Under the pieces are notes generated by a model. It did not search any database and was not told the DNA's origin. It saw only the letters and a list, made by a program, of their open reading frames with translations. The translations under genes and the position numbers were made by a program. A stretch of 1,840 nucleotides of DNA, taken from assembly GCF_003334255.1 (NCBI RefSeq), contig NZ_QOWU01000146.1, one strand, 5' to 3'. Within the stretch, counting starts at the first letter, position 1. Each line of letters begins with the position of its first letter. This DNA is from Escherichia coli. Its GTDB lineage: Bacteria; Pseudomonadota; Gammaproteobacteria; Enterobacterales; Enterobacteriaceae. Below, piece by piece: positions 921 through 945 of this stretch.

Positions 921-945
921 AGGCGTTGTATGCCACACAACGCCT
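921..945. terminator. Stem-loop between convergent genes, candidate bidirectional intrinsic terminator
   Basis: AGGCGTTGT (921-929) pairs with ACAACGCCT (937-945), a 9-bp perfect stem around the 7-nt loop ATGCCAC. On + it is followed by a T-rich stretch (TCACTGTTCATTTCTTCTTTTTCTC). On - it lies 7 nt past the stop at 952-954 and is followed by TTCTTCCATCATTCC. Neither U-tract is ideal. Confidence 0.45.

Follow-up and report, generated by a model that had tools for sequence, protein, structure and literature searches.

A hairpin between convergent reading frames in a phage-21-like Escherichia coli prophage may mark the 3′ end of a minus-strand accessory cassette

The window analyzed here, a stretch of 1,840 nt from Escherichia coli (RefSeq assembly GCF_003334255.1, contig NZ_QOWU01000146.1), has the gene order of a phage-21-like lambdoid prophage, in which Rz/Rz1 is followed by accessory genes, cos, and Nu1. 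Its first 191 bases hold, on the plus strand, the 3′ part of the Rz spanin gene with the embedded Rz1 (KPPPPPAWIMQ...). The cos region, also read on the plus strand, occupies 1563-1604, with cosQ (GGGTCCT) at about 1563-1569, the cosN nick at 1592/1593, and a lambda-type left cohesive end (GGGCGGCGACCT) at 1593-1604, and the small-terminase (Nu1) gene starts at 1788. E. coli G1/2 contains a prophage with 100% identity over the entire window, and positions 202-1592 match the right end of phage 21 (OL657228) at 98.6% identity, the linear phage 21 genome terminating at window position 1592. These landmarks place the hairpin under study, at 921-945, in the accessory ("moron") DNA that separates the lysis genes from cos. 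In lambda, Q-antiterminated late transcription of the plus strand has to traverse the Rz-cos stretch before it reaches the head genes, and the location of cos here puts the hairpin within the corresponding path from Rz to Nu1. GC content across window positions 200-1800 is 0.43-0.49, compared to 0.53-0.58 in the Rz, terminase large subunit, and portal genes, a modest gap; GC skew left the coding strand of the region unsettled, and a permissive scan of the whole window with Rfam covariance models returned no match at E-values up to 1. The element is common, as the 111 nt surrounding the hairpin (880-990) are present in about 1,224 of 5,426 complete E. coli genomes (~23%), including CFT073, Nissle 1917, and ST131 strains, and are at least 99% identical in 1,196 of these 1,224 records. 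In CFT073 they correspond to about 1,432,269-1,432,379 of NZ_CP051263.1.

On the plus strand, positions 503-829 encode a 108-aa lipoprotein (lipobox LAVGC) whose sole domain is a TonB C-terminal domain (TIGR01352, 47 bits), and which belongs to an accessory module spanning about 201-914. This protein could plausibly interfere with TonB-dependent receptors, for instance in superinfection exclusion; its PHROG label, "Rz-like spanin", is probably owing to its position. No good plus-strand promoter was found 5′ of the gene. An antisense promoter-like site does lie inside it, at 630-657 on the minus strand (TTAACC, 16-nt spacer, TGaTATAAT; 10/12 matches), and a better match occupies the same position in a 72%-identical allele (TTCACA, 16-nt spacer, TATAAT; 11/12), the corresponding coordinates being 2628-2655 in L043 and 2331-2358 in L004. 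Further downstream, a 40-aa plus-strand ORF annotated in phage 21 as CPT_21_74 (867-989) carries a strong AGGAG Shine-Dalgarno sequence and spans the hairpin, and searches with this ORF yielded neither family matches nor homologs.

The opposite strand carries two short reading frames, of which the more distant one encodes an 83-aa secreted Cys-rich peptide (1193-1444, minus strand) with a predicted Sec signal peptide (MKIRNILAISLATSSFSCLA) and a Cys-rich tail (CDASPVPGCTCPFCTMLR). Homologs of 80-101 aa align to it at 43-65% identity, and four of them retain both the full length and the Cys-rich tail, with the consensus CxxSPVPGCxCPFCxMLR. These homologs are found in unrelated genomic contexts, and DNA homology ends at or shortly before the stop codon. 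Based on this conservation of length and Cys motif among diverged homologs, we consider the minus-strand ORF 1444-1193 to be a real gene. It is not called as a CDS in the four records inspected (G1/2, CFT073, phage 21, and PhiR47_2), and the peptide has no Pfam, NCBIfam, PHROG, or PADLOC family; searches of the small ORFs of the window against Pfam, NCBIfam, and PADLOC were likewise without match. Neighbors of the homologs include a SPATE autotransporter, bor, an omptin, and an IpaH-type gene at one enterobacterial locus (L129), and fecI/fecR-like genes at another (L135). In database proteins of 164-165 aa (P0009; loci L086-L089), both minus-strand ORFs are joined into an apparently intact frame. 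We rejected this fusion as a sequencing artefact created by single-base homopolymer deletions (T5>T4 at 962 and G5>G4 at 1247), since the assemblies of origin also have fragmented terminase genes, which points to long-read errors, probably, and not to an ancestral intact gene. The diverged homologs of 80-83 aa confirm the short reading frame against the 165-aa fusion. The stop codon of the 83-aa gene lies 247 nt from the hairpin.

The intervening sequence includes a second minus-strand ORF of 59 aa (952-1131; WP_000253883.1), annotated by RefSeq in this exact sequence and preceded by a good Shine-Dalgarno sequence (GAGGAAGGAAAGATG). The preliminary description, made from the letters alone, had taken it as a small gene; the annotation agrees, but the ORF is an orphan that displays no sign of purifying selection. 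All database matches were near-identical copies or artefacts. In the one divergent allele (LR-31, and the similar L040) a 1-nt insertion shifts the frame near codon 6 and splits the start of the ORF from its remainder, and all four substitutions (4/4) in LR-31 are nonsynonymous. Across 952-1218, RefSeq calls differ by genome and comprise the minus-strand 59-aa protein, a plus-strand 60-aa protein (WP_000881610.1), or nothing, the plus-strand call being made where 1171 T>G abolishes a stop. PHROGs contains one family per strand for this same DNA (phrog_4843 and phrog_3744), and because these families of 59-aa minus-strand and 45/60-aa plus-strand ORFs lie on opposite strands, they do not provide independent coding evidence. 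On these sequence patterns the coding status of the 59-aa ORF appears doubtful, and the region may instead be a 3′UTR. A promoter-like site is also located within this ORF (1033-1061, minus strand; TTGACC, 17-nt spacer, CATACT); if active, it would yield an RNA of ~110 nt ending at the hairpin.

The hairpin itself is a perfect 9-bp inverted repeat at 921-945 (AGGCGTTGT-ATGCCAC-ACAACGCCT) that can form on both strands, with a 7-nt loop on plus-strand RNA. The single 9-bp stem first described at this site thus stands, as do the distances given for its neighbors: the lipoprotein ORF ends at 829, 91 nt from the hairpin, and the stop codon of the minus-strand 59-aa ORF (952-954) abuts it across a 6-nt spacer. 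Free-energy calculations gave -12.4 kcal/mol for the plus-strand RNA (9 pairs; z = -4.4) and -14.6 kcal/mol for the core of the minus-strand RNA (11 pairs, 3-nt loop; z = -4.1), values matched by 0 of 200 shuffles in either case. The minus-strand RNA reaches 11 pairs because the A930·C936 opposition turns into a G·U pair there. A twelfth pair, an extra G·U at the base of the stem, is seen when the minus-strand RNA is folded in context (885-952), so that the extended minus-strand hairpin at 920-946 comprises 12 contiguous pairs, two of them G·U, around a GGC loop (-16.4 kcal/mol for 919-947). Both G·U positions are C·A mismatches in the plus-strand RNA. Of 2000 dinucleotide-shuffled versions of the whole window, 77 contained a perfect stem of 9 bp or more with a 3-10 nt loop, which corresponds to a window-level p of about 0.04 and indicates that the hairpin is non-random, modestly so. 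The window contains no second copy of the inverted repeat and no operator-like array.

Pyrimidine-rich sequence flanks the hairpin on both sides, in agreement with the preliminary description (CACTGTTCATTTCTTCTTTTTCTCT on the plus strand and TCTTCCATCATTCCTCGTC on the minus strand), and neither flank is a stem-adjacent T-run. On the plus strand the T/C-rich tract covers 946-972, with a T5 run that begins 12 nt beyond the stem, and positions 957-962 are able to pair with 915-920 to form a weak lower stem over an 11-nt bulge. The minus-strand tail (905-919, CUUCCAUCAUUCCUC) is an interrupted, weak U-tract; two substitutions in it in allele L040, at 908 and 912, are both C>U on the minus strand. 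The 100 nt beyond this tail are C-rich and G-poor (34 C, 15 G) and resemble a rut site.

Terminator prediction gave a sub-canonical result on both strands. In either direction the stem-loop is stable, contains GC pairs, and has a short loop, and its stem (9 bp on the plus strand, 11-12 bp on the minus strand) lies within the 5-14 bp or so that are usual for intrinsic terminators. By contrast with this stem, neither side has a U-tract, which we defined as ~5 or more U in 8 nt beginning 0-2 nt from the stem: the plus-strand tail CACUGUUC has 3 U in 8 nt (T = 0.50, d = -59.8), and the minus-strand tail UCUUCCAU has 4 U in 8 nt (T = 1.97-2.66, d = -13.9 to -24.7). A better plus-strand parse (d = -9.1, T = 4.2) requires an A/U lower helix of 5-6 bp over the 11-nt bulge, and with this helix formed across the bulge UUUUUCUCU directly abuts the structure. 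The best scores are thus -9.1 on the plus strand and -13.9 on the minus strand. Because the d'Aubenton-Carafa-type formula is sensitive to how the stem is parsed, we calibrated it on annotated phage 21 terminators instead of using a threshold of zero, and three such terminators scored +22 to +29. A consensus terminator scan that reported five terminator-like sites in the window called the hairpin on neither strand, and the expert-curated phage 21 record marks terminators elsewhere, one of them on both strands (33198-33227), and none at the hairpin. As a candidate intrinsic terminator the hairpin is therefore sub-canonical in both directions. Our literature search retrieved no usable transcript or terminator map of this prophage, including for Nissle 1917.

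Comparison with mosaic relatives divides this part of the window into two modules, a TonB module at about 201-914 and a minus-strand cassette at about 915-1540. The junction (910-915) is provided by E. coli A22, in which homology extends from 214 to 914 and then gives way to ylcI-type sequence. A22 keeps the TonB-like gene without the hairpin and the rest of 915-1536, and this break at 914 places the hairpin at the very edge of the minus-strand cassette; the 40-aa plus-strand ORF is cut to 22 aa at the same junction. The cassette also behaves as an insertion relative to related phages, PhiR12-type and Stx phages matching the ends of the window only. In 72%-identical alleles of the TonB-like gene, homology to the window stops at 812. 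A terminator scan downstream of the gene in A22 and in a representative divergent allele, L043, found no equivalent site; beyond the gene, the other divergent alleles are almost identical in sequence to L043.

Natural variation within the stem is minimal. The sole stem variant among seven aligned sequences, which include the most divergent alleles found, is G942A (SCU-111 and L029), and this change produces a G·U pair on the minus-strand RNA and a C·A mismatch on the plus-strand RNA. Covariation analysis was impossible, as viral contigs, the 5,426 E. coli genomes, phage tblastn searches, and plasmids gave the hairpin segment only at ≥94% identity. Since all copies are nearly clonal in this sense, conservation of the stem is uninformative, and the absence of any substitution in 25 nt would be expected by chance in ~30% of cases. 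One seemingly divergent relative (P0023/L085) was discarded as an error-ridden contig with 9% gaps against the window.

Taken together, the structure, its placement, and the module boundaries favor a reading in which the hairpin is the 3′-terminal element of a minus-strand moron cassette (~915-1540) and either terminates weakly with the help of factors or protects the RNA end; we assign this reading a probability of roughly 0.45. In a phage-21-like prophage, the cassette would have entered the interval from Rz to cos, next to the moron for the TonB-like lipoprotein. Minus-strand transcription would begin near a candidate promoter at 1497-1523 (minus strand), a consensus match composed of CTGATC, a 15-nt spacer, and an extended -10 (TGcTATTAT). 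The predicted transcript would read the 83-aa peptide gene (1444-1193) and run on for ~250 nt through the orphan 59-aa ORF or what is plain 3′UTR, and its RNA would form the 12-pair stem at 946-920, where it would end or be trimmed back. This could occur in two ways, with the hairpin functioning either as a weak, factor-assisted intrinsic terminator with an interrupted U-tract (UCUUCCAUCAUU), or as a stem that shields the RNA end once Rho has terminated transcription in the C-rich, G-poor sequence beyond it. Plus-strand RNA has the 9-pair form, which in lysogens would probably do no more than pause or weakly stop polymerase that is not antiterminated, and Q-modified late transcription would have to pass it to reach Nu1 and the head genes.

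Several observations favor the minus strand in this proposal. The stem is longer there (12 pairs and -16.4 kcal/mol, vs. 9 pairs and -12.4 kcal/mol), G942A retains pairing on minus-strand RNA alone, the hairpin was lost with the minus-strand cassette in A22 while the TonB-like gene was retained, and no equivalent site lies downstream of that gene in A22 or L043. Each of these strand-asymmetry arguments is individually weak: the asymmetry comes down to two wobble positions and two single substitutions, each substitution having a 50% chance of going either way, and the argument that the hairpin travels with the minus-strand cassette comes from one recombinant genome. Assignment to the cassette is further supported by the reality of the 83-aa minus-strand gene, by the extended -10 promoter-like site just inside the far boundary of the cassette, by a GC content lower than that of the flanking phage genes, which fits the description of morons (PMC3594210), and by a similar U-less hairpin after the minus-strand bor gene in lambda and phage 21. 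Against a minus-strand terminator stand the lack of a stem-adjacent U-run, the sub-threshold d, and the missing scan call, and against the cassette reading as a whole stands the fact that plus-strand ORFs are often annotated across this DNA, both in RefSeq and by the curators of phage 21.

The alternative that fares best is that the hairpin has no transcriptional function. It would then be a palindrome that arose by chance or is decaying, within an orphan segment that is young and nearly clonal, and might lie inside CPT_21_74, taken as a coding ORF. A window-level chance of ~4% is not negligible given that many windows were scanned, and positions 915-1192 form an orphan segment of at least 99% identity in all but one divergent allele, where conservation proves nothing. 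In the curated phage 21 record, moreover, the hairpin falls within a plus-strand ORF that has a strong Shine-Dalgarno sequence, and no terminator is marked there. We nevertheless consider this reading rather unlikely, because the RNA z-scores are about -4 on both strands, the hairpin falls precisely in the gap between ORF ends with a mosaic junction 6 nt away, a parallel hairpin occurs at bor in lambda and phage 21, and the 40-aa ORF that would contain it is without homologs and truncated in A22.

The preliminary description had instead suggested one bidirectional terminator between the lipoprotein gene and the small minus-strand gene. Part of that proposal holds, in that a hairpin does lie amid convergent annotated ORFs with pyrimidine-rich tracts on both sides; the step to a single bidirectional terminator does not, given the scan, the scores, and the phage 21 annotation. 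Such an element, common to the TonB-like gene and whatever unit is read from the minus strand, could consist of two weak intrinsic terminators or be of the collision type, in which the hairpin merely pauses polymerases that are then released by head-on and trailing collisions. Bidirectional terminators mapped in E. coli by SEnd-seq "do not resemble intrinsic terminators", are attributed to hairpin-induced pausing together with polymerase collisions, and are weak when assayed in a single direction, with 9% and 39% release (bioRxiv 10.1101/2022.10.23.513370). Since these known examples need no U-tract (bioRxiv 10.1101/2022.10.23.513370), the missing U-tracts at 921-945 are not disqualifying, and the extended plus-strand structure does run directly into UUUUUCUCU (T = 4.2, d = -9.1). 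However, the plus-strand core is followed by 3 T in 8 nt (d = -59.8), and the extended form depends on an A/U helix over an 11-nt bulge. The hairpin does not travel with the TonB-like gene, A22 and L043 being without a counterpart, no good plus-strand promoter lies upstream of that gene, and a collision mechanism requires heavy traffic from both sides. We therefore judge a true bidirectional terminator unlikely.

A variant of the minus-strand reading, in which 946-1192 is non-protein-coding and gives rise to a prophage ncRNA ending at the hairpin, either derived from a 3′UTR or produced as an RNA of ~110 nt from the 1061-1033 site, seems to us quite improbable; such an ncRNA would run antisense to late phage transcription shortly before cos. 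Very improbable is a role for the DNA itself, whether bound by a dimeric protein or acting as the recombination hotspot that made the junction at ~914: the inverted repeat is perfect as DNA and the A22 module junction is 6 nt away, but that junction is a single event, neither another copy nor an operator-like array occurs in the window, the G·U pairs that extend the stem on one strand are meaningful only for RNA, and no DNA-binding gene is adjacent.

Under the favored assignment to the end of the minus-strand cassette, the hairpin is an ordinary feature that probably delimits the transcription unit of the 83-aa gene. The direct stakes are small: a prophage very common in E. coli would gain one more hairpin at a transcript end in its accessory region. 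The practical value is one of annotation, ORF calls near the hairpin disagreeing between RefSeq genomes and the curated phage 21 record. The unannotated 83-aa peptide gene and these inconsistent ORF calls are the more useful by-products of the analysis. If both accessory units were expressed in lysogens, the hairpin would represent a compact natural insulation between two morons that is still read through by Q-antiterminated transcription.

Among known systems, the terminators of phage 21 itself (tR′, the ninB-region terminator, and the 33198-33227 element) share with the hairpin a GC-containing stem-loop located after a stop codon and a folding energy of -12 to -17 kcal/mol. They differ in their tails and scores, with 5-7 U at the stem, T of 4.5-5.4, and d of +22 to +29, whereas the hairpin has 3-4 U in 8 nt and a best d of -9 to -14. 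Collision-type terminators, as described in bioRxiv 10.1101/2022.10.23.513370 (e.g., ynaJ-uspE; Ju et al. 2019 therein), resemble the hairpin in their weak or absent intrinsic signature and in the unequal U-tracts of the two directions. They lie in the gap between convergent units, where the present hairpin lies between convergent annotated ORFs, and the RNA hairpin encoded on both strands that characterizes this class is found at 921-945. The class is defined by mapped overlapping 3′ ends and active convergent transcription, whereas the present hairpin is known from sequence, and one of its two flanking "genes" is doubtful.

A further parallel is offered by lambdoid moron cassettes, which are described as carrying their own promoter and terminator and as differing in GC content (PMC3594210). 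Like such morons, the cassette is missing from related phages and has a lower GC content than its flanks, and it combines a promoter-like site at one end with a hairpin at the opposite end and runs counter to late transcription, as bor does. It departs from such cassettes in the ~250 nt of orphan sequence between gene and hairpin and in that both its promoter and its terminator are putative.

A close structural precedent is the hairpin between the stops of Rz (plus strand) and bor (minus strand) in lambda (NC_001416 46428-46453; L138 529-554), a perfect 11-bp stem of sequence GAGTTGCCCAT-ATCG-ATGGGCAACTC, of which phage 21 has a copy of 10-11 bp (L001 ~995-1020). Neither the lambda nor the phage 21 record annotates this hairpin, and our literature search found no experimental characterization of the lambda element, so that the likeness is to be read as structural only. 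The two hairpins have no sequence similarity. At 921-945 the plus-strand gene opposite is an accessory one at a distance of 91 nt; lambda and phage 21 have the essential late gene Rz in that place, its stop directly against the stem. Both hairpins lie in the Rz-to-cos accessory stretch of the lambdoid late region, and both have a GC-containing stem of 9-11 bp a few nt past the stop of a minus-strand accessory ORF, facing a plus-strand gene, with a U-run on neither side and a sub-threshold terminator score on both strands. The phage 21 copy is the more stable on minus-strand (bor-strand) RNA, since a T>C change in it keeps pairing on that RNA alone, as G·U against C·A on the plus strand, and the hairpin at 921-945 shows the same bias toward the minus strand.
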